Source: a bacterium
GTDB taxonomy: Bacteria; Bacteroidota; Ignavibacteria; Kapaibacteriales; UBA7675
Length of the DNA: 64,000 nucleotides
Reading direction: 5' to 3'
Assembly (NCBI GenBank): GCA_030430495.1
Contig: JAUIKM010000001.1
Location: forward strand, 202,447 to 266,446
The position numbers and the translations under genes were made by a program. Within the stretch, counting starts at the first letter, position 1, and every line of letters starts with the position of its first letter. Below the pieces are notes generated by a model that saw only the letters and a list, made by a program, of their open reading frames with translations, did no database searches and was not told where the DNA came from. Below are positions 1,262 through 29,124 of this stretch, one piece after another.

Positions 1262-4054
1262 ATGAGCAAAACACGGAAAAAAAGCGACGTCGCCGATACC
1301 GGTAAAGACGCCGCGGTCGAAGATTCTCCCGCCGATCAAACCCCAACCAAACGAACCAGCAAACGCACCGCAGCCAAAAAGGCGCCGAGCGCGGCGTCCA
1401 AACGCGCCGCTGCAAAAGCGGACGACGGCGACGCAGTTGAAAAAGCTCCGCCCAAAAAGCGCAAAGCCGCTCCGCGCAAAAAAGCTGCCGCCAAAGCGCC
1501 AGCCAAGGCCAAGGCTGCTGCAACCGACTCCAAATCCCGCTCTGCAAGCGAGGTTAAGGACGCGCAGGATGAACTGTTCGGCGCTGGTGAATCGAGCGGT
1601 ACAAACAAAAAAGCCACGCCTGCACGGAAAAGCAGCACACGCCGCAAAGCTCCGGCCAAAAGCACTGCCGCCAAAGAAAAGCCGGCCGTAGCTGAAACCG
1701 CTGCCGACTTGGACGACAGCGCTGCGGAGACGCCGAAACCCAAAGCCAAACGCGCACCGCGCAAAGCCGCCCCGAAAGCGAAAGCCGCGCCCAAAAAAGC
1801 CGCGAGCCGAGCGAAAAAAGCTGAACCAGCCGACGTCGATACGGCCGATGCTGCCGAGAGCGCCGAGGAAACGCCCGCTAAAGCACCCGCCAAAAAACGT
1901 CCGGCCGCAAAGTCCAAAGCCGCGAGTACGTCCCGCAGCCGCAAGAGCAGCGCCAAAACCGCGCCGCAAGAGACGCCGGACGAAGCGCCCGAAGCCGCTG
2001 TGACCGAAAGCGATGAAGCCGAAAGCGCACCGAAACGCAGTACGCGTCGCAAAGCCGCGCCGAAAAAGTCTCCGGCTAAAACGACAAAAGACAAAGCGGT
2101 CGAAGAAACCGCGGCGATCGAAGCGGAACAGGCTGAAAGTGCGGGCGACGGCGAATCCGACGAACAGGCCGATCAAAGCCAAACCAGATCGCGTCGCTCA
2201 GGCCGTGGACGCCGTGGCGGCCGAGGTCGTCGTGGTGGAGAACGTTCCGAAGAGCGGGAAGCCGCCGGAGACGATCAACGCGACGAAGAGCAGGACCAGG
2301 ACAAAGAACAGCGCAAACCGCTGCGTCGCAAAGGCGAAGTAGATCCGAAAAAAGACGAGGCCGAGGGAGGCGAAGATTCAGCTCCCGAGCAAGCTCCCGC
2401 GCGCAAAAAATACGACCACGGTTTTGGCGAAATCGATCTGCGTCCGCAGTTGAATGAATCCGGCCCGGATGAGTCGGTTAACACGCTGGACGAGATCGAA
2501 TTGGACGAGCTGCCGCCGCGTATGCGCCAGGCCGTCGAAAACTTCGGCTGGGACAGTCTGATGCCGGTCCAGAGCCGCTCGATTCCCTACATGTTGGCGG
2601 GTCGCGACCTGATGGTGCAATCCAAAACGGGCAGCGGTAAAACGGCGGCATTCCTGCTGCCGATTCTCGAGCGAATCGATACCTCGCTGCCGCAGTGCCA
2701 GGCACTGGTGCTTGTGCCGACGCGCGAGCTGGCGCACCAGGTTGAAACGGAAGCACAGACCCTGGCGCAGGGACTTGGCGTTCGCATTGTCGCCGTCTTC
2801 GGCGGCGTCGGCTACGGCTCGCAGTTGCAGGCTTTCCGCGAAGGAGCGCAGCTCGTCATCGGAACGCCGGGACGCATTCTGGATCACATGCTGAAGCGCT
2901 CGCTGACGCTCGAAGCGCTGCAGATGCTGGTGCTGGACGAAGCCGATCACATGCTGTCGATGGGTTTTTATCCCGACATGAAACGCGTGCAGACCTTCCT
3001 GCCGCGCAGCAACTACAACGCCTACATGTTTTCGGCCACCTTTCCGCCGCGCGTGGTGCGCCTTTCCGACGAATTTCTTTGGAAGCCCGATTTTGTTAGT
3101 CTCAGCAAAGATCAGGTTCACGCCATCCAGACTGAGCACGTCATTTACGCCGTGCCGGACATGGACAAGGACCGCAGTTTTGTCAGGATTCTCGAAATCG
3201 AAAACCCGGCCAACGCCATTATTTTCTGCAACACCAAGGTCCAGGTCAACTACGTGGCCGTTGTGTTGCAGCGTTTTGGTTTCGACGCGGATGCGCTCAG
3301 TTCCGACCTGTCGCAGGGCGAACGCGAGCGTGTGCTGTCGCGCGTCCGTGCCGGCAATCTGCGCTTTCTGGTAGCCACGGATGTGGCGGCGCGCGGGATT
3401 GATATTCCCGAGCTCTCGCACGTATTTCAGTTCGACGTACCGGAAGATCCCGAGTCTTATATCCACCGTTCGGGCCGCACGGGCCGCGCCGGATCGACGG
3501 GACGCGCCATTACGCTGGCCGACTTCCAGGACCGCATCAAACTCGAGCGCATCGGCGCGCGTTATCAGATTGAATTTGTGGAGCGCCCGCTGCCGACGGA
3601 TGACGACATCGCCACGGTGGTGTCGCAGCGCGTCACGGTGCTGCTGGAATCGCGTTTCCGTTCGCGCGACAATGTGCAGCTCGAAAGTCTGGAGCGCTTC
3701 ACTAAACTGGCGGCAGCACTCGGCTCCGACGAAGACGGCTCGCGCCTGCTGGCAATGATGCTCGACGACTTCTATAAGTTTTCGCTGCATACGCCGCCGC
3801 CGCCACGTCGCGGCCGCGACGACCGACGTCAGGAGCCTCGCTCCGGCGGCGGACAACAGGACGCCCCGCGCGACCAGTACGCCGAGCAGGCGGAACAAGC
3901 CGAACAGGAGCATGACACCGACCGTGAGCGGGACCAGGACCACGACAATCGCGACGGCGGTGGAGATCGTCGCGACGGCGGCGGAGATGGTCAGGGCGGT
4001 CGCGGTCGAGGCGGACGTCGACGCCGCGGAGGCAGGAGACGGCGGAGGAACTAG
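1262..4054 (+). CDS. DEAD-box ATP-dependent RNA helicase (DeaD/RhlE-like) with ~370-aa N-terminal K/A/P-rich histone-H1-like low-complexity extension and C-terminal RGG/RD-rich tail
   Basis: Motifs in the translation: SKTGSGKTAAF (Walker A), PTRELA, VLDEADHM (DEAD), FSATFP (SAT), HRSGRTGRAG (motif VI). The N-terminus is made of AAKKAP/KRKAAPRKK repeats. The C-terminus is GGRGRGGRRRRGG. Confidence 0.9.
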   Translation: MSKTRKKSDVADTGKDAAVEDSPADQTPTKRTSKRTAAKKAPSAASKRAAAKADDGDAVEKAPPKKRKAAPRKKAAAKAPAKAKAAATDSKSRSASEVKDAQDELFGAGESSGTNKKATPARKSSTRRKAPAKSTAAKEKPAVAETAADLDDSAAETPKPKAKRAPRKAAPKAKAAPKKAASRAKKAEPADVDTADAAESAEETPAKAPAKKRPAAKSKAASTSRSRKSSAKTAPQETPDEAPEAAVTESDEAESAPKRSTRRKAAPKKSPAKTTKDKAVEETAAIEAEQAESAGDGESDEQADQSQTRSRRSGRGRRGGRGRRGGERSEEREAAGDDQRDEEQDQDKEQRKPLRRKGEVDPKKDEAEGGEDSAPEQAPARKKYDHGFGEIDLRPQLNESGPDESVNTLDEIELDELPPRMRQAVENFGWDSLMPVQSRSIPYMLAGRDLMVQSKTGSGKTAAFLLPILERIDTSLPQCQALVLVPTRELAHQVETEAQTLAQGLGVRIVAVFGGVGYGSQLQAFREGAQLVIGTPGRILDHMLKRSLTLEALQMLVLDEADHMLSMGFYPDMKRVQTFLPRSNYNAYMFSATFPPRVVRLSDEFLWKPDFVSLSKDQVHAIQTEHVIYAVPDMDKDRSFVRILEIENPANAIIFCNTKVQVNYVAVVLQRFGFDADALSSDLSQGERERVLSRVRAGNLRFLVATDVAARGIDIPELSHVFQFDVPEDPESYIHRSGRTGRAGSTGRAITLADFQDRIKLERIGARYQIEFVERPLPTDDDIATVVSQRVTVLLESRFRSRDNVQLESLERFTKLAAALGSDEDGSRLLAMMLDDFYKFSLHTPPPPRRGRDDRRQEPRSGGGQQDAPRDQYAEQAEQAEQEHDTDRERDQDHDNRDGGGDRRDGGGDGQGGRGRGGRRRRGGRRRRRN

Positions 4055-15099: not shown

Positions 15100-15850
15100 G
15101 TTGCTTCCTGTGTCGTAACGTCTTGCGTCCGCCGGCCGGGTCATTCCTTCCTCTTAACCCGCCCGCGTGAATTTATAAAATTCCGGGAAACTTCAATGGC
15201 TGACGAGCGCAACAAGTTTGTGTTGTGCTTTGTTCCACCCGTTTTGACTCGATTATGGTCTTTTTACCTTCTTTTTTGGGTCCGACTGCCAAGTCGTTTA
15301 CAACATTGTACCGCAGGTAATTTTCCGGCGACTGCCTGATTATTTTGTTTGTCATGCGGATAGAAGCGGCAGGTCCCCGCACAGCCGCGTGTCCCGGGGT
15401 GAACAGGGACAATGCCCTTGCAGGCCGCGGAGATTGCCCGCGCCTGCGGCGCGTCGCTTAACGCCGGGTTGCCGGAGGGAACACCATCCGGAAATACGTC
15501 GCAACTTTGAACCTTCACCGTTGAACTCCGCCGCTTAACCGCACAACGGCTTCCGTGATGATTGCGCGATACAACCGCAGCCGAAAATTCACTTCGCTGC
15601 CGTCGGCGGCGCAGAAGCGGAATCATTGATCGCTGGAACGCGCGAACGTCTGAATGCGACAATTCCGCAGCGCACGTCTGTCGTTTACCGGGTAAACAGA
15701 GTTCACCGGGTAAACAGAGTGCACCGGCGAATAAACTGCGCCGCATCAGATAAAGCGCGGGGAATGCGGTCGGGCAATCCGGCTTCAGCCTGTTGAACAG
15801 CCCGGCGCTGTAACATTTGAACATCAAATTGCATGCTGCGGCGCTCAGCA

Positions 15851-16212
15851 TTCACCGGTGAACTGTGAATTCAACACGGATCCGAAAGGGAAGAACACCC
15901 CTTGCGGCCGCGCCGCGTCAGGCCGGGCGACGCCTGCCAATACGCGCAGCGTGAATTGCGTCGCGGCCGAATGTGAAAACGGCCGCTTCACAATTTCACA
16001 GCTTCACATCGGCGCAATGTGTTCACAAGTGGAAGTGAAAATGAGGAGTGTTTAGCCGGGAATGAAGCGGCGGAATTATCACCTAAAGTGAATATATGAA
16101 CGTGTGAAACAGCAAAAGCCCGCTGTTGAAGAAGTGAATCAAATCGCGTTTCACATTCCGCCGCTGCTGTTTACAGTCTGATTCACTGCGTTAAAAGCGT
16201 GAAAAAGTTCAC
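15851..16212. promoter_or_regulatory. Array of about 17 GTGAA/TTCAC (TGTGAA/TTCACA) half-sites, followed (16213-16396) by a strongly AT-rich tract; oriC-like DnaA-box cluster or operator array
   Basis: Counted directly. Palindrome TTCACCGGTGAA (15851-62). Three phased TTCACA copies (15987-16008). TTCAC-N8-GTGAA (16022-39). GTGAA-N11-TTCAC (16134-54). The pentamer is expected about once by chance in this length. Confidence 0.5.
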
Positions 16213-16396
16213 TTTTTACACATTTCGGGTCAAAAAACGGTACTTTTTCCAATTAATTAACTCATTAGCTATTGCATCGGCCTGTTTAATGTTGTAGATT
16301 TGAAACAGTTTTTTAGGTTAAGTCCAATTTCGCAGCAGCAATTTTCTTTAATACAACAGTATCTCTTTTCTTTAACGATTGAATTGGTAGTCAACT

Positions 16397-17074
16397 ATGG
16401 ATTCGAACACAGTAGCTGATCGTTTGCGTGAATTCGGTCAGGAGAAGTACGGCAACATGACGCAATTTGCCGGCGCTCTCGGAATGTCCCCCCAGGCGCT
16501 TTCGCCGTACCTTAACGGACGTCGCAACCCCGGCAAACGCATGCTTGCCAAACTTGAACAACTCGGTGCGAATCCGGGCTATATCTCCGGTGAAGGCGAA
16601 GGCGGCAGTGCACCTGCGGCTTCCGCAGCCCCGGCGGCAGCAGCTCCGGCTAAAAAGCGCCGCGGCCGTAAACCCAAAGCCAAACCCGCCGCTGAAGCAG
16701 CGCCGAAAAAGGCAAAAGCTCCGGCCGCCAAAAAAGCTAAAGCCAAAACCAAGGCAAAAGCTAAACCCGCAGCAGCAGCCAAACCCGCTGCTGAAGCCGC
16801 TCCCAAGAAAGCCAAAGGTCGTCCCGGCCGCAAAAAAGGTTCCACAGCAGTTAAAGCCGCGCCGAAGAAACGCCGCGGTCGTCAGCCCAAAGCTGCTGTT
16901 GCCGCAACCAGCGCCGTTTCGGCTGCCGAAATGCAATTGCTCGAATACCTGCGCAAAATTGGCCTGGCCAGCGTAGATTCGGTCGTTAACCTGCTTGAGT
17001 CGATCAAAACCGTTTCCGACGAAGACTACATGAAGAAATTCCGCCGCGCCAAGCCGCGTAAGATCGTCAAGTAA
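16397..17074 (+). CDS. HTH_XRE (Cro/C1-type) DNA-binding domain fused to K/A-rich histone-H1-like region with AT-hook-like motifs (KRRGRKPKA, KGRPGRKKG, KRRGRQPKA)
   Basis: The N-terminus MTQFAGALGMSPQALSPYLNGRRNPGKRMLAKL is a typical XRE HTH. The middle 120 aa are AAAPAKK repeats. There is a short structured C-terminal tail. Confidence 0.7.
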   Translation: MDSNTVADRLREFGQEKYGNMTQFAGALGMSPQALSPYLNGRRNPGKRMLAKLEQLGANPGYISGEGEGGSAPAASAAPAAAAPAKKRRGRKPKAKPAAEAAPKKAKAPAAKKAKAKTKAKAKPAAAAKPAAEAAPKKAKGRPGRKKGSTAVKAAPKKRRGRQPKAAVAATSAVSAAEMQLLEYLRKIGLASVDSVVNLLESIKTVSDEDYMKKFRRAKPRKIVK

Positions 17075-17110
17075 GTCCGTCCGACACGACATTGCGAAAG
17101 CAATCCTTAA

Positions 17111-17137
17111 CGCACCGTGTGAACTTCACACGGTGCG
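17111..17137 (+). terminator. Perfect hairpin cgcaccgtgtgaa-ct-ttcacacggtgcg followed by ttgtatgttttaaa
   Basis: It lies 37 nt after the stop of the 16397-17074 gene. The stem itself contains the TGTGAA/TTCACA motif. Confidence 0.6.
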
Positions 17138-17628
17138 TTGTATGTTTTAAAGCGCGGCCCTGAACACCGGTCCACGTGCGTTGACAGCGCGGAACGCGAT
17201 ACTACCACCGAACTCCAGGCCTTGCGTTCAATTCGTCTAAGGCATTTCAACACAATAAGTTGTGAGTGGTGTATTCACAAGTTGCTGCAAGCGCTGTGGA
17301 GTGAATCAGACGCCGTTTTGCTCTAGTTTCTACTGTGTTAATTCGGGCCTTTAACAGCTTCGTGACGAGGCGACGGGCATTTCCGGACCTGATCCATGTA
17401 AACTTCGAGCAGTGCGCCTGAATGCGATGCACGGACCTTGATACGGCACGTCCGGTGCGTTGCAGATCTACGCAGACATTGAACAGGGGATTGAGCGGCA
17501 TACAACTGATTCTACGGCTCCAGACATGCCGAACCCAGCCCGCGGGGGGATTTCACCATCATATGCTTTTGTGCGGCACACTGAAGGGCGGGGCTAAACA
17601 GAAAATCATGCCTGGAGAAGCAGCAGGA

Positions 17629-19032
17629 TCAGACCGGGAATTTCAAGGTGAAGGTCGAACCTTTGTCGAGTTCACTTTCGACGCTGACTGAGCCCTTGTA
17701 CATTTCCATGACGTGTTTCACGATGGCCAGGCCAAGACCGCTGCCGCCGAGTTCACGTGAACGCGCTTTGTCGACGCGGTAGAAACGTTCAAAAATACGG
17801 CCCAGATCTTCCTTCTTGATGCCGCGGCCGGTGTCGGCAACCTTGATGATGCACTTGCCGCCTTCGAGGAAAGAATGCACCGTAACGGAGCCTTTTTCCG
17901 TGTATTTAACAGCGTTGTCCATCAGGTTAATAATGGCTTTGTCGAGGTGGTAGGTGTCGACGAGCAGCCTGAAGTCCACGGGCAGTTTATTGTCGTAGTT
18001 AAGCGCCAGGCCTTTGTCGCGCGCCTTGCGGTTGAAGTCTTCCAGCAGGTTGCGAATGTAGTCTTCCAGGCGAATATAACGCTCGTCGCGGCTCTGCTGA
18101 TAGGATTCCAGACGCGAAAGGTCGAGCATGTCGTTGACGATTATTTCCAGGCGTTCAACGTTGGAAAGGGCGCGTTCCAGGAAACGGCGATTAACCTGTT
18201 TGTTTTCGAGCGCGCCGTCCAGCAGTGTTTCAACGTATCCCTTGATGGCGCTTACCGGCGTTTTTAACTCGTGTGAAGCGTTGGCGATAAAGTCGCGGCG
18301 CACTTCCTGCACGCGTTCGTATTGCTCGATGTTTGAGCGAAGTTTCTCGCCCATCGATTTAATCGAGCGGCCCAGTTCGCCGATTTCGTTGCGCTGATTG
18401 ATGTCCGGCGTCGTCGAGTAGTTTCCGTCGGCAATCCGTTTGGTCATGCCGATGAGATGTGAAATCGGCCGCGTTAAATAACGCGAGAGATTAAGAATGG
18501 AAAGCAGGGCAATGAGTGAGGAGACGGTGGCGGCGATTACGAGAATGAAGCGGATCTTGAGCACGTTGTCATCGATAAAATCGAGGTCGTGAGCGATCCG
18601 GATAATATAACCGCTGGGAGCGTCGTAGGCGGTGTAAAGCAGGTTCTGCTGTAGCGTCTGACTGTATCGACGCGAGTTGCCGAAGTGATCCGGGCTGTTG
18701 AGCGCCTGAACGACCTCGTCGCGTTCGATGTGATTTTCCAGCGGTGTTTCATTAACATCGACGCGCGTATCCAGGATCACATTCCCGACGCTGTCGATAA
18801 GCGTAACACGGGCCCCGACGTAACCGGCCAGTCGATCGACAACGGCGTAGGAGTTGCCGTTGTACTGCAGCAGCGACTCATCAATGAGCTGGCACTGCGT
18901 TTTCATGTTTTCGACCAACTGGTCCTGCATATTTTGCTGCAGCAGATTTTCCGCCGTCAGCAGCAGAACCAGTGAACAGACCAGATAGAGACCGATGAAG
19001 ATTATCGAAAGCTGGGAATGGACTTTGCGCAT
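17629..19032 (-). CDS. Sensor histidine kinase (PhoR/EnvZ-like; 2 TM, HAMP, HisKA, HATPase_c)
   Basis: H-box ASHELKTPVSAIKGY. ATPase GGSGLGLAIVKHVMEMYKGSVSVESELDKGSTFTLKFP. It is immediately downstream of the response regulator. Confidence 0.9.
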   Translation of the reverse strand: MRKVHSQLSIIFIGLYLVCSLVLLLTAENLLQQNMQDQLVENMKTQCQLIDESLLQYNGNSYAVVDRLAGYVGARVTLIDSVGNVILDTRVDVNETPLENHIERDEVVQALNSPDHFGNSRRYSQTLQQNLLYTAYDAPSGYIIRIAHDLDFIDDNVLKIRFILVIAATVSSLIALLSILNLSRYLTRPISHLIGMTKRIADGNYSTTPDINQRNEIGELGRSIKSMGEKLRSNIEQYERVQEVRRDFIANASHELKTPVSAIKGYVETLLDGALENKQVNRRFLERALSNVERLEIIVNDMLDLSRLESYQQSRDERYIRLEDYIRNLLEDFNRKARDKGLALNYDNKLPVDFRLLVDTYHLDKAIINLMDNAVKYTEKGSVTVHSFLEGGKCIIKVADTGRGIKKEDLGRIFERFYRVDKARSRELGGSGLGLAIVKHVMEMYKGSVSVESELDKGSTFTLKFPV

Positions 19033-19770
19033 TTAGTCAATCAACTGAACAAATTTGTAGCCGACGCCCTGAACGGTTTGAATGTGCCGGGCATAGTTGT
19101 TGAGTTTCTTGCGAATCTTCGTGACATGCACGTCGACCGTCCGTTCAATCTGATAGGCGTCTTCACCCCAGACATTATACAGGAGGTCCTTGCGGGAGAA
19201 GACAATACCCGGACGTTTCATCAGAAAATACAACAAATCGAACTCTTTGGGCAGAAGTTTGATCTCGACTTCGGCGACTTTGACGGTATAACTGAGGCGA
19301 TCTATCTCAACTTCGCCGATTTTGATGATTTCCTTGTCTGCGCCGCGGAACTTGTTAAGGCGCTCTTTCTGGCGGAAAATAGCGCGCACTTTGGCGGTGA
19401 TAACGCGCGGGCTGAATGGTTTGGTCAGGTAGTCATCCGCACCCAACTCAAGGCCGAGCACTTCGTCCACTTCTTCGGATTTGGCCGTCAGGAACACAAC
19501 GGATGCGTTCTTCAGCTTGGAATTCTGGCGCAGGGCCTTGCACACTTCGTAGCCGTCGAAGCCTGGCATCATGATGTCGAGCAGGATTACTTCGGGCATC
19601 ACGCGGTCCGCTATCGTCAATGCGTCCTTGCCGTTGTCCGCGGTGTAGACCTTGTATCCTTCGTTGCCGAGATTATACGAAAGGATCTCAAGAATATCGC
19701 GTTCGTCGTCGACGCAAAGAATGATTTTGTCTTTTTTCACGACTGCTGCACTCCTGCTGTATAAAAGCAT
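19033..19770 (-). CDS. OmpR/PhoB-family response regulator (REC + winged-helix)
   Basis: KIILCVDDERDILEILSYNL...ILLDIMMPGFDGYEVC. Winged helix LLPKEFDLLYFLMKRPGIVFSRKDLLYNVWG...VDVHVTKIRKKL. The ORF-track N-terminal 68 aa are probably not translated; the start is the ATG at 19770 or the GTG near 19738. Confidence 0.85.
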   Translation of the reverse strand: MLLYSRSAAVVKKDKIILCVDDERDILEILSYNLGNEGYKVYTADNGKDALTIADRVMPEVILLDIMMPGFDGYEVCKALRQNSKLKNASVVFLTAKSEEVDEVLGLELGADDYLTKPFSPRVITAKVRAIFRQKERLNKFRGADKEIIKIGEVEIDRLSYTVKVAEVEIKLLPKEFDLLYFLMKRPGIVFSRKDLLYNVWGEDAYQIERTVDVHVTKIRKKLNNYARHIQTVQGVGYKFVQLID

Positions 19771-20420
19771 GATTTGAGACGTTCGTGCCCGATTTGCCGT
19801 GCACAAACTGAATTTGTTGATCGCCTGTGCGCGAATTTCCGGCTTAAACAGATCCGTCTGACGGGCTGCTCGCTCGCTGAAATCCGTCGTTTTTGCTGTG
19901 ACCTGGAAGAATCTGTGGTGGCGGGGAATGTGCGGAAGTAACCAGGAGGGGTGTTTAAAGACGATGCGCTGCATTGCAGACGCAGTTCTGCCGGCGGACG
20001 CGTTGCCGCCGTCGGATTCGACGCATTGCGCCCATTCTCACCTGAATCGGCCTGCCGCGTCCGCACCTGCCGAAAGGAAGGCGCGAGTCGCTCTGACTTT
20101 TGTCGATCGGACAGGTCCAATCCAATGCGGGCTGACGTCATAGATTCCTTACCGCCGGACAATCATTGTCTTTCTGCTGCAAAAATATGTCCTTTATGTA
20201 AACCTCATGTTTGTCACATATTAATAAGGTGTAAAATGGCCGGAACGCAAAACGGCGGCGCAGATTGTTGCGTCGCCGTTTCAGCTTCGTTTCGCTGTGG
20301 AGCAAGGCCCGCCGTCGGGTGGAGATCGGCGCAAGCTGCGTCTGCACGGCTCATCCGGCACCGAAATTGCCGCGTCCGAATCACCGATCAGGCGCCCTTG
20401 GCCGGCCGGGCCGATTGACC

Positions 20421-24557: not shown

Positions 24558-26438
24558 ATGGCTGTGCAGCATGGCTATACCGAAGAGAGCATCAGGTCGC
24601 TTGACCCGATGGAGCATATCCGCCTGCGCCCGGGTATGTATATCGGCAAGCTCGGGGATGGTTCTTCTGCGGATGACGGCATTTATGTGCTCATCAAGGA
24701 GGTGGTCGACAATTCGATCGATGAGCACGTTATGGGCTTCGGCAAGACGATTGAAATTGCGGTGGACGAGCGCCGCGTAACGGTGCGCGACTACGGGCGC
24801 GGCATTCCGCTGGGGAAGGTGGTGGAATGTGTGTCGCAGATTAACACCGGCGGCAAGTTCGACAGCAAGGCCTTTAAGAAATCGGTCGGACTTAACGGCG
24901 TCGGCACCAAGGCGGTTAACGCCCTGTCGGAATATTTCATGGTGCAGAGCGTACGCGACGGCAAAATGAAGGTCGCCGAGTTTGCCGGCGGCAAATTGAC
25001 TGCCAATAAACGCCTGCAGTCGACCTCCTACCGCAACGGCACCAAATTTGTCTTCGAGCCGGACCAGGAAGTGTTTAAGAACTTCCGCTTTGTGCCGGAA
25101 TTCCTCGAAAATCAGATCAAGTACTACACCTACCTGAACGCCGGTCTGACGATTGTGTTTAATGGTCAGAAGTACCATTCCAGGGAAGGATTAAAAGACC
25201 TGCTGACGCATTCGGCCGACGTCGAGGAGTTGCGTTATCCGATCATTCACATGCGCGACGAAGACATCGAATTTGCGCTGAGCCACGGCAGTCACTACGG
25301 CGAGCAATATTACTCCTTTGTTAACGGCCAGCATACCACACAGGGCGGCACTCACCTCAACGCATTCCGGGAAGCTCTTGTTAAGACCGCACGGGAGTTT
25401 TTCAAAAAAGATTTTGATGCCTCCGATGTGCGCGCTTCCGTGCTGGGAGCTGTAAGCGTGCGCATCCAGGAACCCATCTTTGAGTCGCAGACCAAGACAA
25501 AACTGGGTTCGCAGACAATGTCGCCCAACGGCGTGTCCGTGCGCGGTTTTATTGTTGATTATGTGCAGAGTAAACTCGACGATTTCCTGCACAAAAATCC
25601 GCAGACGGCGGACGCTATGTTAAAACGCATCGTGCAGTCCGAGCGCGAGCGCAAGGAAATGGCCGGAATCAAAAAACTCGCCAATCAGCGCGCTAAAAAG
25701 GCCAACCTGCACAACAAAAAACTGCGCGACTGCAAGTATCACCTGAGCGATCCCAAAGCGCCTGAAGACAAGGCGCGCGAGTCCACCTTGTTTATCACCG
25801 AGGGCGATTCCGCCAGCGGCTCGCTCACCAAGTCGCGCGACGTCGGCACACAGGCCGTCTTTTCACTGCGCGGCAAACCCCTGAATTCCTTCGGTATGAA
25901 AAAACGCGTGGTGTACGAAAACGAAGAGTTTAATCTGCTGCAACACGCGCTGGACATCGAAGACGGCCTCGACAGCCTGCGTTACAACCGCGTTGTAATC
26001 GCAACCGACGCCGACGTCGACGGCATGCACATCCGCCTGTTGATGTTGACCTTCTTCCTGCAGTTCTTTCCCGAACTGGTCCGCAAGGGACACGTTTACA
26101 TTCTGGAAACGCCGCTTTTCCGCGTGCGCAACAAAAAGGTGACGGAGTACTGTTACAATGAACAGGAAAAACAGGCGGCGCTCGGACGGCTCGGCAAAAA
26201 CGCCGAGATAACGCGATTTAAAGGTCTCGGAGAAATTTCGCCGGACGAATTCGGCGCGTTTATCGGCGAAGAAATACGTTTAAGTCCGGTAACGCTCAGA
26301 AGCGAAACTCACCTGACGCGGCTGCTTAGTTATTACATGGGCAAAAACACGCCCGTGCGCCAGGAGTTTATCGTAAAAAACCTGCGCGTGGAACAGGACC
26401 TGATCGAGACGGAGGAGGCCGAACATGTCGAAGCGTAA
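24558..26438 (+). CDS. parE: Type IIA topoisomerase B subunit, most likely topoisomerase IV ParE (626 aa, lacks the long GyrB insertion)
   Basis: [17 protein letters not shown] (Bacteroidota ParE-type N-terminus). GHKL ATPase. [14 protein letters not shown] and [12 protein letters not shown]. Adjacent to and overlapping the A subunit gene. Confidence 0.75.
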
Positions 26439-29124
26439 CAAAAAAGGTGAAGACACGCCGGACCTTTTTGCCGAAAATGCGGATGACCAGGCGACCGACC
26501 CGCAACCTCAATCTGAACAACAAACAAGAGGATCAGGCAAAGTGCAAGGGGAAGCAGCCGATTCACAGGATCAGGAACATAACGACGACACGGTTCAGGC
26601 GGAAGGCGACAGCGCAGAAACGACCGATGGACAGGACGAAGACGGGCAGCACAACGGCTTGAGCGGGCACGGTCTGGTTTCGGTCAGCGGTATGTACGAG
26701 AATTATTACCTCGACTACGCTTCTTATGTGATTCTGGAGCGCGCCGTTCCCGCGCTGGAAGACGGACTTAAACCGGTGCAGCGCCGCATTCTGCATTCGA
26801 TGCGCCGCATGGAAGACGGACGTTTTCACAAAGTGGCCAACGTGATTGGGCATACAATGCAGTTTCACCCACACGGCGACGCGGCCATAGGCGATGCGAT
26901 TGTTAACCTCGGTCAAAAAGAATTGTTGATCGACACGCAGGGAAACTGGGGCGATACGCGTACGGGCGACCGCGCCGCAGCGCCTCGTTATATTGAAACG
27001 CGTCTTTCCCGCTTTGCCCTGGAAGTGGTGTTTAACCCGCAGACGACGGAATGGCAGATGTCCTACGACGGGCGCAACAAAGAGCCTGTCGATCTTCCCG
27101 TTAAGTTCCCGCTCCTGCTGGCGCAGGGCGTCGAGGGAATTGCCGTTGGTCTGGCAACCAAAATCATGCCGCACAACTTTGTTGAACTGTGCGAGGCGTC
27201 GATTGCCTGGCTGAAAGGGCGCAAACCCAAGCTGCTGCCGGACTTTCCCAACGGCGGCATGATGGATGCGAGCAATTACAACGGCGGGCAAAAGGGCGGA
27301 CGCATCCGCCTGCGCGCACACATTGAAACGGTCGACAAACGCACGCTTAACATTACGAGCATCCCCTACGGCGTCACGACGCAGAACCTGATCGACTCGA
27401 TCATCAAAGCCAACGACTCCGGGAAAATCAAGATCAAAAAGGTGGAGGATCAGACGGCGCGCGATGTTAACATTCTGGTGCACCTGGCGCCGAATACATC
27501 GCCAGACGTCACGCTCGACGCGCTCTACGCCTTTACGCATTGTGAGGTGTCGATCTCGCCCAACTGCTGCGTCATCGTCGATAGTCACCCGCAGTTTATC
27601 AGTGTCAACGAGTGCCTGATGCGTTCGACCGACCAGACTGTGGACCTGCTTAAACGCGAACTGGAGATTCGTCTGGCCGAACTGGCGGAGCGTTGGCATT
27701 TCAGTTCGCTCGAAAAGATCTTCATCGAGAATCGCATCTATCGCGACATCGAAGAGTGCGAAACCTGGGAGTCGGTGATCTCCACGATCGACGCGGGTCT
27801 GGAGCCGTTTAAGGCCCGGTTGCATCGCGAGGTTACGCGCGACGACATCATCAAACTGACCGAAATCAAAATTAAACGCATCTCGCGCTACGATTCGTTC
27901 AAAGCGGATGAAGTCATTGCCGACATCGAAGATGAAATGGCCGACGTGGAGCACAATCTGGAGGAGCTGACCGAATACGCGATAGAGTACTTCCGCGCTT
28001 TGCTCAGCAAATACGGCAAGGGCCGCGAGCGCCGCACGGAAATCCGCACGTTCGACACAATTGAAGTCGCCACCGTGGCGGCCGCCAACCAGAAACTCTA
28101 CGTCAATCGCCAGGATGGATTTATCGGCTACGGCCTCAAAAAGGACGAATTTGTCGAAGAGTGCTCCGACATCGACGATATTATTGTTTTCCGGCGCGAC
28201 GGCGGATATCAGATTACCAAGGTGTCCGAAAAGGCATTTGTCGGCAAGGACATTCTGCACGTGGCCGTCTGGAAACGCAGCGACGAACGCATGGTGTACA
28301 ATGTCTTGTACCGCGACGGCGCTACCGGCAAGTCATTTGCCAAGCGTTTTAACGTTACGGCCGGCACGCGCGATCGCGAATACAATTTAACGACGGGTTC
28401 CAAGGGCTCGAAAATCCTGTACTTCACGGCCAACCCCAACAGCGAGTCGGAGATTGTGACGATTTCACTCGACGCGCGTTCGCGGGCACGTATCAAGGAA
28501 TTCGACTTCGACTTCGGCGAACTCGACATCAAGAATCGCAATGCCAAGGGCAATACCGTGACGCGCTATACGGTGCGCAAAGTGGTGCAGAAGTCGCAGG
28601 GCGCTTCAACCCTGGGCGGGCTGGACCTTTACTATGACGATGCCGTCGGCAAGTTGAACAGCGACGAACGCGGCATGTACCTGGGCAGTTTCGAGGGCGA
28701 CGATCGCATTCTGGCCGTGTACCGGGACGGCAGCTACGAGCTGACGCAGTACGAAGTCAGTAAACGCTTTGAAGCCGATAAACTCTCGCTGATCAGGAAG
28801 TTTGATCCGGCCGACGTGCTCAGCGTGATTTATCTGGACGGCGAGAGCAAAAACTACTATGTTAAACGTTTCCAGATCGATACCGTAACCGTCGACAAGC
28901 GCTTCAGCTTTGTGACGGACCACAAACAAACCAGGCTCGAATTTGTCGACGCAGCCGAAGAACCGGTTGTGACGTTCAAGTTCAGCGGCATGAAACGCGG
29001 TGAACGCGGCGAACAAACCGTCAACCTGGCGGACTTTATCGATGTGCGCGGACGCCAGACGCAGGGCAACAAACTCGGCAACTACAAAAAAATCAGCGGC
29101 CTGAAAAAGGTCCAGTCCGAGTGA
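26425..29124 (+). CDS. parC: Type IIA topoisomerase A subunit, most likely topoisomerase IV ParC (899 aa) with an acidic N-terminal extension
   Basis: [14 protein letters not shown] and the catalytic Tyr region [10 protein letters not shown]. There is a long C-terminal beta-pinwheel-type region. It overlaps the parE stop by 14 nt. Confidence 0.75.

Follow-up and report, generated by a model that had tools for sequence, protein, structure and literature searches.

A protein with an XRE-type helix-turn-helix domain and a histone H1-like polycationic segment encoded in a Kapaibacteriales genome

Eukaryote-like tails rich in lysine, alanine and proline (K/A/P) are known on the DNA-binding proteins of a few bacterial lineages, the examples being CarD, HupB, Hc1 and AlgP. 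Mycobacterial HupB/MDP1, Streptomyces HupS, Chlamydia Hc1/Hc2 and Pseudomonas AlgP are K/A/P-rich or histone H1-like proteins, and the xenogeneic silencers H-NS, Lsr2 and MvaT possess an AT-hook-like Q/RGR motif of the minor-groove type. The 64,000-nucleotide stretch of contig JAUIKM010000001.1 analysed here (positions 202,447 to 266,446 of the forward strand; hereafter the window, within which all positions are given) encodes a protein of 225 amino acids (aa) that consists of an XRE/Cro-C1-type helix-turn-helix (HTH) domain, a disordered K/A/P segment and a helical C-terminal domain (CTD) ending in a short basic tail (Table 1). We hold with moderate confidence that the gene encodes a chromosomal XRE regulator to which a polycationic DNA-binding tether has been added. 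The locus would add to the known lineages a case from the Fibrobacteres-Chlorobi-Bacteroidetes (FCB) superphylum, in which a K/A/P tail is an addition to a sequence-specific XRE HTH; it would represent a rare but precedented route by which a regulator gains a non-specific grip on DNA, and opens no new category.

In CarD, a tail of the HMGA type (M. xanthus) or the H1 type (Anaeromyxobacter) supplies the DNA binding, and the tails are interchangeable (PMC2919716). The window protein resembles CarD in that a eukaryote-like basic region of putative DNA-binding function is appended to a folded domain, and the interchangeability of the CarD tails has a parallel in the clade of the window protein, where the tail is loosely conserved and its position changes. 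The folded domain of CarD, however, is CarD_CdnL_TRCF (PF02559), a domain that binds RNA polymerase and does not by itself bind DNA, whereas the window protein has an XRE HTH, a kind of domain that does, lacks an acidic region, carries its basic segment in the linker instead of at the C-terminus, and is not homologous to CarD. Pfam matches within its 225 aa are limited to HTH families and do not include CarD_CdnL_TRCF; the likeness to CarD drawn in the initial annotation of this DNA is apt as an analogy (PMC2919716), and the protein falls outside the CarD family.

With HupB/HupS, Hc1/Hc2 and AlgP the window protein shares a K/A/P-rich disordered polycation that is attached to, or acts as, a DNA-binding protein, but those proteins have an HU fold or no folded partner, and are established abundant nucleoid proteins. 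Like H-NS, Lsr2 and MvaT, it has RGR-type motifs that may be able to enter AT-rich minor grooves together with a possible oligomerisation module; unlike them, it has no homologous domains, and its RGR motifs lie in a disordered segment, not in a folded loop. In SinR-type regulators, too, a short helical C-terminal module follows an N-terminal XRE HTH, but SinR has neither a basic tail nor an H1-like linker, and no homology to SinR or SinI is detectable in the CTD of the window protein. An N-terminal XRE HTH with a basic or proline-rich low-complexity stretch behind it is a feature of RodZ as well; in RodZ a transmembrane helix and a periplasmic domain come next, but the window protein has neither a transmembrane helix nor DUF4115 (no Pfam match); its only long uncharged run (residues 68-85) is Ala/Pro/Ser-rich and predicted to be disordered, there is no hydrophobic stretch and no helix in the AlphaFold2 (AF2) model between residues 65 and 175, and it is not a RodZ protein. 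A phage CI/LexA-like repressor was rejected as an identification, there being no Peptidase_S24 domain, no phage genes nearby, and a chromosomal context that is syntenic across genera. Origin from a phage or mobile element was rejected as well: a scan of viral contigs returned three distant matches, the PHROG matches are generic regulators, and the context is chromosomal.

The coding sequence and its three parts

The coding sequence (CDS) is evidently real and under purifying selection in its frame, because its differences from a close relative are biased to third codon positions, the one indel is in frame, and an identical protein is found in independent assemblies. Three Logan contigs assembled from independent runs (samples including ERR3428547 and SRR24442552) encode the protein identical to that of the window (P0001), and one of these contigs, 15.6 kb long, matches the window base for base. 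A copy of the gene at 98% identity is found in L004 (contig CAYULF010000003.1, 194373-215053, of a metagenome-assembled genome (MAG) that is a GTDB representative). Between the two copies 29 codons differ, 26 synonymously and 3 non-synonymously; 26 of the 30 base changes fall at codon position 3; and the sole indel is an in-frame insertion of 6 nt, or two codons (KA), within a K/A run. The HTH domain and the CTD, each of which has homologs in the family described below, share one frame across the low-complexity stretch. The initial annotation had named as its own possible refutation that the K/A-rich region might be translated from a frameshifted assembly. Long alternative open reading frames (ORFs) do overlap this region, in another frame and on the opposite strand, but overlapping ORFs are a usual by-product of GCN/AAR-rich DNA. 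The identical contigs from independent samples, the synonymous divergence and in-frame indel of the L004 copy, the common frame of the flanking domains, and an ortholog of the same layout (L005, below) leave an artefact of frameshifted or chimeric assembly with a negligible probability, and it was rejected.

The HTH domain matches Pfam HTH_3 (PF01381) over residues 20-55 with a score of 26.6 bits (curated cutoff, 23), and residues 3-64 form a five-helix bundle in the AF2 model (predicted local distance difference test (pLDDT) 85-98), for which the input alignment comprised 32 family sequences. The top Foldseek matches of the HTH model in the PDB are all XRE/Cro-C1 domains, among them those of ClgR, the N-domain of SinR, C.AhdI and the 434 repressor (target TM-score 0.7-0.8). 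With a Pfam score above the cutoff and a five-helix, lambda-repressor-like fold, the domain belongs to the XRE/Cro-C1 class.

In the 110 residues that follow, A accounts for 36%, K for 23%, P for 12% and R for 7%; the segment includes runs of the AAKKAKAKTKAKAK type, carries a net charge of +29, and has no predicted secondary structure (pLDDT ~50). This composition and predicted disorder, together with the HTH_3 match, bear out the earlier proposal of an XRE HTH joined to an H1-like K/A region. The protein itself evidently lies outside the H1 and Hc1/Hc2 families, its likeness to H1 being compositional only: it has no Pfam match at E<=1 to linker-histone H1, Hc1 or HC2. The DNA of the segment contains internal repeats D3 (44 nt, two copies) and D4 (39 nt, two copies), and the segment has therefore evidently been built in part by internal duplications; D4 makes AT-hook-like motif 3 a duplicate of motif 1.

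All eight arginines of the segment lie inside three RGR-type motifs. The core of an AT hook is GRP with K/R on either side, and an AT-hook-like motif has extra residues inside or beside that core (PMC11354804). On that definition, motif 2 would be near-canonical, and motifs 1 and 3 would be AT-hook-like with one extra residue each. The RGRP-like AT hooks that had been proposed are mostly non-canonical: three RGR-type motifs are present, of which one has a GRP core and two are of the form RGR(K/Q)P, the protein has no match to Pfam AT_hook (PF02178) at E<=1, and the motifs are not kept in relatives (a single RGRK in L005, none in P0002).

The CTD (pLDDT 79-91 over residues 171-200), which the initial annotation had overlooked, is without relatives in Pfam and the PDB sequences and has no confident fold relative; in a model of a compact homolog, the pLDDT of this domain (50-67) was too low for a fold search. 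The family profile gives a weak full-length alignment with 9sf2, an unpublished 129-aa regulator (E=0.0011). Judging by the architecture, the CTD is probably an oligomerisation module.

Table 1. Positions of the gene, the parts of its product, and flanking features in the window
Feature	Position	Strand	Basis or remarks
Complete CDS	16397..17074	+	ATG 16397, TAA 17072-17074; 225 aa; identical protein is P0001
XRE/Cro-C1-type HTH domain (residues 1-65)	16397..16591	+	Pfam HTH_3, AF2, Foldseek
Disordered histone-H1-tail-like K/A/P segment (residues 66-175)	16592..16921	+	Composition, AF2, DNA repeats
AT-hook-like motif 1, KKRRGRKPKAK (residues 86-96; KKRRGRKPK is 86-94), non-canonical RGRKP	16652..16684	+	Sequence; repeat D4
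AT-hook motif 2, KGRPGRKK (residues 140-147), sole GRP core	16814..16837	+	Sequence
AT-hook-like motif 3, KKRRGRQPK (residues 157-165), non-canonical RGRQP	16865..16891	+	Sequence; repeat D4
Helical CTD (helices 176-187 and 193-216) and basic tail RRAKPRKIVK	16922..17071	+	Family alignments; AF2
Probable promoter block TTGCATCGGCCTGTTTAATGTTGTAGATTTG (31 nt)	16274..16304	+	Three-way upstream alignment, conserved in orthologs
Array of 17 GTGAA/TTCAC cores, consensus ~WGTGAAW	15851..16212		Both orientations, irregular spacing, upstream of promoter
Intrinsic terminator, perfect 15-bp stem then T-run; stem contains TGTGAAcTTCACA	17108..17150	+	Inverted repeat I9
DEAD-box helicase, 930 aa	1262-4054	+	Pfam; ~430-aa disordered-looking K/A/P/E-rich N-terminal extension
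Two-component system adjoining the locus	17629-19974	-	Most similar to PhoR/PnpS and PhoB, below NCBIfam equivalog cutoffs

Relatives of the protein and distribution of the basic segment

The family was searched with HMMER (phmmer) among 1.84 billion representatives, with residues 1-125 of P0002, the closest relative, in which the HTH domain is adjacent to the CTD, as the query; the full-length window protein as a query yielded only two matches, the search being swamped by low-complexity words. With the P0002 query, 979 proteins scored E<1e-3, 120 of them E<1e-10, and P0001 was recovered in two stretches (E 5.9e-31). The window protein evidently belongs to an uncharacterised family of regulators, the core of which consists of ~130-aa (120-150) proteins with an HTH domain (signature RLRxFG...FAxALGxSPQxLxxYLxGxxxPGxKM..KL..LGCDIxWLxTG), a short linker, a helical CTD (signature EExxLLxxLxxxGIDSxExLxxxLxP..., core motif LLxxLxxxG(I/L)xS) and a short K/R-rich C-terminus (for example, KYKVKGKGKRK). 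The most specific annotation given to its members is 'XRE family transcriptional regulator'. The two members of which the context was examined are stand-alone chromosomal genes that adjoin a single-domain response regulator gene, and some distant relatives bear an S24 peptidase domain. P0003, P0006 and P0017 possess 3, 6 and 7 tandem copies of a related HTH in single polypeptides of 295, 640 and 1002 aa, respectively. The unusual architecture of such relatives, which have two to seven tandem copies, suggests recognition of arrays of short sites.

A long K/A/P region is present in only two of the 150 best family representatives, P0001 and P0002. A scan of one genome per species (185,579 species) identified two loci, the near-identical L004 and L005 (from a Candidatus Kapaibacterium MAG), and neither of two scans of the JGI metagenomes revealed another close relative. 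The earlier characterisation of this architecture as non-standard for bacteria agrees with its rarity in these surveys. The MAG that contains L004 is recorded as 'uncultured Hyphomicrobiales bacterium', a label that is probably wrong, or else the bin is mixed, the locus being syntenic with that of the Candidatus Kapaibacterium MAG. The window also carries genes of the type IX secretion system (T9SS) and TonB/CarboxypepD_reg genes, which are typical of the FCB group and fit a Kapabacteria-like organism.

The L005 protein (200 aa) has an HTH domain, an 80-aa K/A-rich segment and a CTD in the same order as the window protein, with a K/A sequence that has diverged from that of the window protein. 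Its gene is evidently the positional ortholog of the window gene, because the loci share synteny, with an SLT-LysM transglycosylase gene upstream on the opposite strand and genes of a histidine kinase and an OmpR-type regulator downstream of the L005 gene, and because the neighbouring proteins are 57-91% identical between the window-type locus and L005. In P0002 (213 aa), the HTH domain and the CTD are adjacent, and an 85-aa K/A/P tail follows at the C-terminus. The HTH domain of P0002 is 87% identical to that of L005 and 76% identical to that of the window protein, and the recognition helix is identical in all three.

By these comparisons, the long H1-like segment is evidently confined to a small Kapabacteria-like clade, within which the K/A/P sequence, the RGR motifs and the position of the segment vary and its composition is retained. 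In the window protein, the segment amounts to a 110-aa expansion of the linker between the two domains of the ~130-aa family, a relation that the initial annotation had not noted. Because the K/A/P region is in the linker of the window and L005 proteins but at the C-terminus of P0002, selection appears to act on the possession of a polycationic region, not on its position or exact sequence. A polycationic appendage, and not a specific fold, appears to be what is selected, because the parent family has a short basic tail, which P0002 lengthens, and the others expand the linker. The clade thus offers a natural experiment in which the position of the tail differs and its sequence is barely conserved, as if charge and composition were selected, and the four natural variants make up a compact system for the effects of a polycation on target search and affinity of an HTH protein.

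Proposed function of the polycationic segment

If the gene encodes a tethered XRE regulator, the HTH domain would enter the major groove and recognise a specific operator there; the K/A/P tether would neutralise and grip the flanking DNA non-specifically, and the RGR motifs would insert into narrow AT-rich minor grooves. The tether would raise affinity and residence time and would allow bending, bridging or local compaction of DNA, and the CTD would oligomerise. In function, the nearest parallels to such a tether are the HMGA-like or H1-like tails of myxobacterial CarD, which is the best precedent, and the K/A/P-rich tail of mycobacterial HupB. The anatomy, the predicted disorder, the conserved frame, the family relationships and the shifting position of the tail, described above, are observations; that the tail binds DNA, that the CTD oligomerises and which operator the HTH domain recognises are matters of inference.

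Several points weigh against a DNA-binding tether on an oligomeric regulator. The RGR motifs are evidently unconserved across the clade, and an AT-hook function may be incidental. The CTD is without recognisable relatives and its monomer model in the compact homolog is of low confidence, which leaves oligomerisation a guess, and the alignment of the family profile with SinR (1b0n), although full-length, is weak (E=0.55). P0002, the example of a relocated tail, is known from one contig of 995 bp. The K/A/P region could have a function unrelated to DNA binding, and compositional drift in the lineage could have contributed to it, a K/A/P-rich extension being present also on the DEAD-box helicase encoded in the same window. 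Because the helicase carries such an extension, which the initial annotation had not taken into account, K/A/P-rich extensions are probably a habit of the lineage, and may be a general tendency on its nucleic-acid-binding proteins.

The last two points lead to an alternative in which the segment is chiefly a flexible spacer, a binder of RNA or another polyanion, or a driver of condensates, produced by a lineage-wide tendency, and DNA binding is not its main role. The ~430-aa extension of the helicase, with its RGG box, and the rapid divergence and shifting position of the K/A sequence among relatives would fit such a role. The segment is, however, attached to a DNA-binding domain in a family that already ends in a short basic tail, its charged composition is apparently preserved by purifying selection, and DNA binding has been shown for such tails in CarD (PMC2919716). 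We consider a main role other than DNA binding to be distinctly improbable.

The upstream region, its GTGAA array and the neighbouring genes

The gene is evidently monocistronic, with its own promoter block and a strong terminator. The promoter block, which is conserved upstream of all three relatives, fits the Bacteroidota-type promoter pattern (-33 TTG, -7 TAnnTTTG) and is putative; the terminator is kept in L004 with one change in the stem. A non-coding RNA in the upstream region or leader was considered and found no support: the leader (~90 nt) folds no better than shuffled sequence (z=+1.26), a search of Rfam with the 1.25-kb upstream region and the leader returned nothing at gathering score or at E<=1, and the upstream region contains no tRNA.

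The array upstream of the promoter contains 17 GTGAA/TTCAC cores in 362 bp, where ~0.9 would be expected, and outside the 15.5-17.7 kb neighbourhood no 400-bp interval of the stretch holds more than four. Eight of the cores include the full TGTGAA, three form TTCACAnn units with a spacing of 8 bp (15987-16010), and the region has one GTGA-N6-TCAC at 16199-16212. Downstream of the gene (17108-17305) there are only four GTGAA cores, of which two form the terminator stem. The gene had been described in the initial annotation as embedded in a TGTGAA array; the clustering is real, but the array lies upstream of the gene, with only these four cores beyond it. Between the window and L004, positions 15960-16396 are almost invariant (~98% identity in the array), whereas the adjacent intergenic DNA (15400-15950) is ~70-80% identical; the array and leader are therefore evidently under constraint, stronger than that on neighbouring intergenic DNA. 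There is no GTGAA array upstream of the L005 ortholog or upstream of P0002 (loci L005 and L003). Candidate readers of the array are the adjoining PhoR/PhoB-like two-component system, a CRP/FNR-type factor (in view of the GTGA-N6-TCAC), or the window protein as a lineage-specific addition. An 18-nt tandem repeat (GTTCACCGGGTAAACAGA; 2.5 copies) is situated at 15683-15727 in the long intergenic region, each copy being a near-palindrome (GTTTACCGGGTAAAC), and L004 is missing one copy.

The suggestion that the gene product is an origin-associated factor would make the locus the chromosomal replication origin, with the array as degenerate DnaA boxes and the 176-bp AT-rich stretch that follows it (16220-16396) as the unwinding element. 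The cumulative GC skew of the window has a minimum at ~16-18 kb, and TTCACA corresponds to positions 4-9 of the DnaA-type box TTATNCACA. The array holds, however, a single site within one mismatch of TTATNCACA, and the window as a whole has no excess of such sites (26 against 23.5 expected). At positions 1-3, which would complete the boxes, the sequence is random. Further sign changes of the skew follow at ~34, 44 and 50 kb, the AT-rich stretch contains the conserved promoter of the gene, a Pfam scan of the larger ORFs of the window (~30, of at least 200 aa) found neither dnaA nor dnaN, and at the syntenic L005 locus the array is absent and the skew does not change. With one DnaA-type box in the array and an ambiguous local skew change, the locus does not qualify as oriC; we regard an origin here as very improbable, and the proposal of an origin-associated factor was abandoned.

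The array bears also on the idea that the window protein is a global, abundant nucleoid-associated protein which would coat AT-rich DNA, with the HTH domain nucleating at sites such as the GTGAA array. The H1-tail composition and +29 charge of the segment, the resemblance of the three RGR motifs to the minor-groove hooks of H-NS and Lsr2, the strong conservation in L004 of the array and AT-rich leader beside the gene, and the hint from multi-HTH relatives that arrays of short sites are read all point in this direction. The parent family, however, resembles ordinary local regulators, and the ortholog locus has no array despite an identical recognition helix, and we consider such a global role unlikely. 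A further elaboration, in which an XRE regulator has been converted to a lineage-specific chromatin-like protein, we regard as distinctly improbable. Its HTH domains, connected to an oligomerising CTD by the 110-aa H1-like linker, would nucleate on irregular GTGAA arrays such as the conserved one beside its own gene, and the RGR/K-A-P segment would coat or bridge neighbouring AT-rich DNA. If this were true, the protein would be an independently evolved bacterial analogue of linker-histone/HMGA function with a freely relocatable tail module. The tethered regulator remains the reading that we prefer.

A Pho-box interpretation of the array is unsupported: the two-component system scores below the NCBIfam cutoffs, and no GTGAA cluster is found upstream of the phosphate-porin gene of L005. 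In L005 (7026-10623), the two-component system is followed by a gene for a phosphate-selective porin O/P. L005 also encodes, ~3 kb upstream of the ortholog, a nucleoid-associated protein of 37 kD (Pfam NA37; 1459-2505, forward strand), which has no counterpart at that place in the window.

The N-terminal extension of the DEAD-box helicase contains KPKAKRAPRKAAPKAKAAPKKAA runs and an RGG box (RSGRGRRGGRGRRGG), and constitutes an H1-like K/A/P region on another nucleic-acid-binding protein. Just upstream of the helicase gene are tandem repeats (11-823) of ~60 nt, in 11.6 copies with 75% matches, on which a higher-order period of 192 nt is superimposed; an ORF (8-1171) reads through them as VRQGAIRVAHSAAHSAANIA-type repeats. 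A pair of type IIA topoisomerase genes (GyrB/ParE-like and GyrA/ParC-like; 24558-29124, forward strand) is located ~8 kb from the locus.

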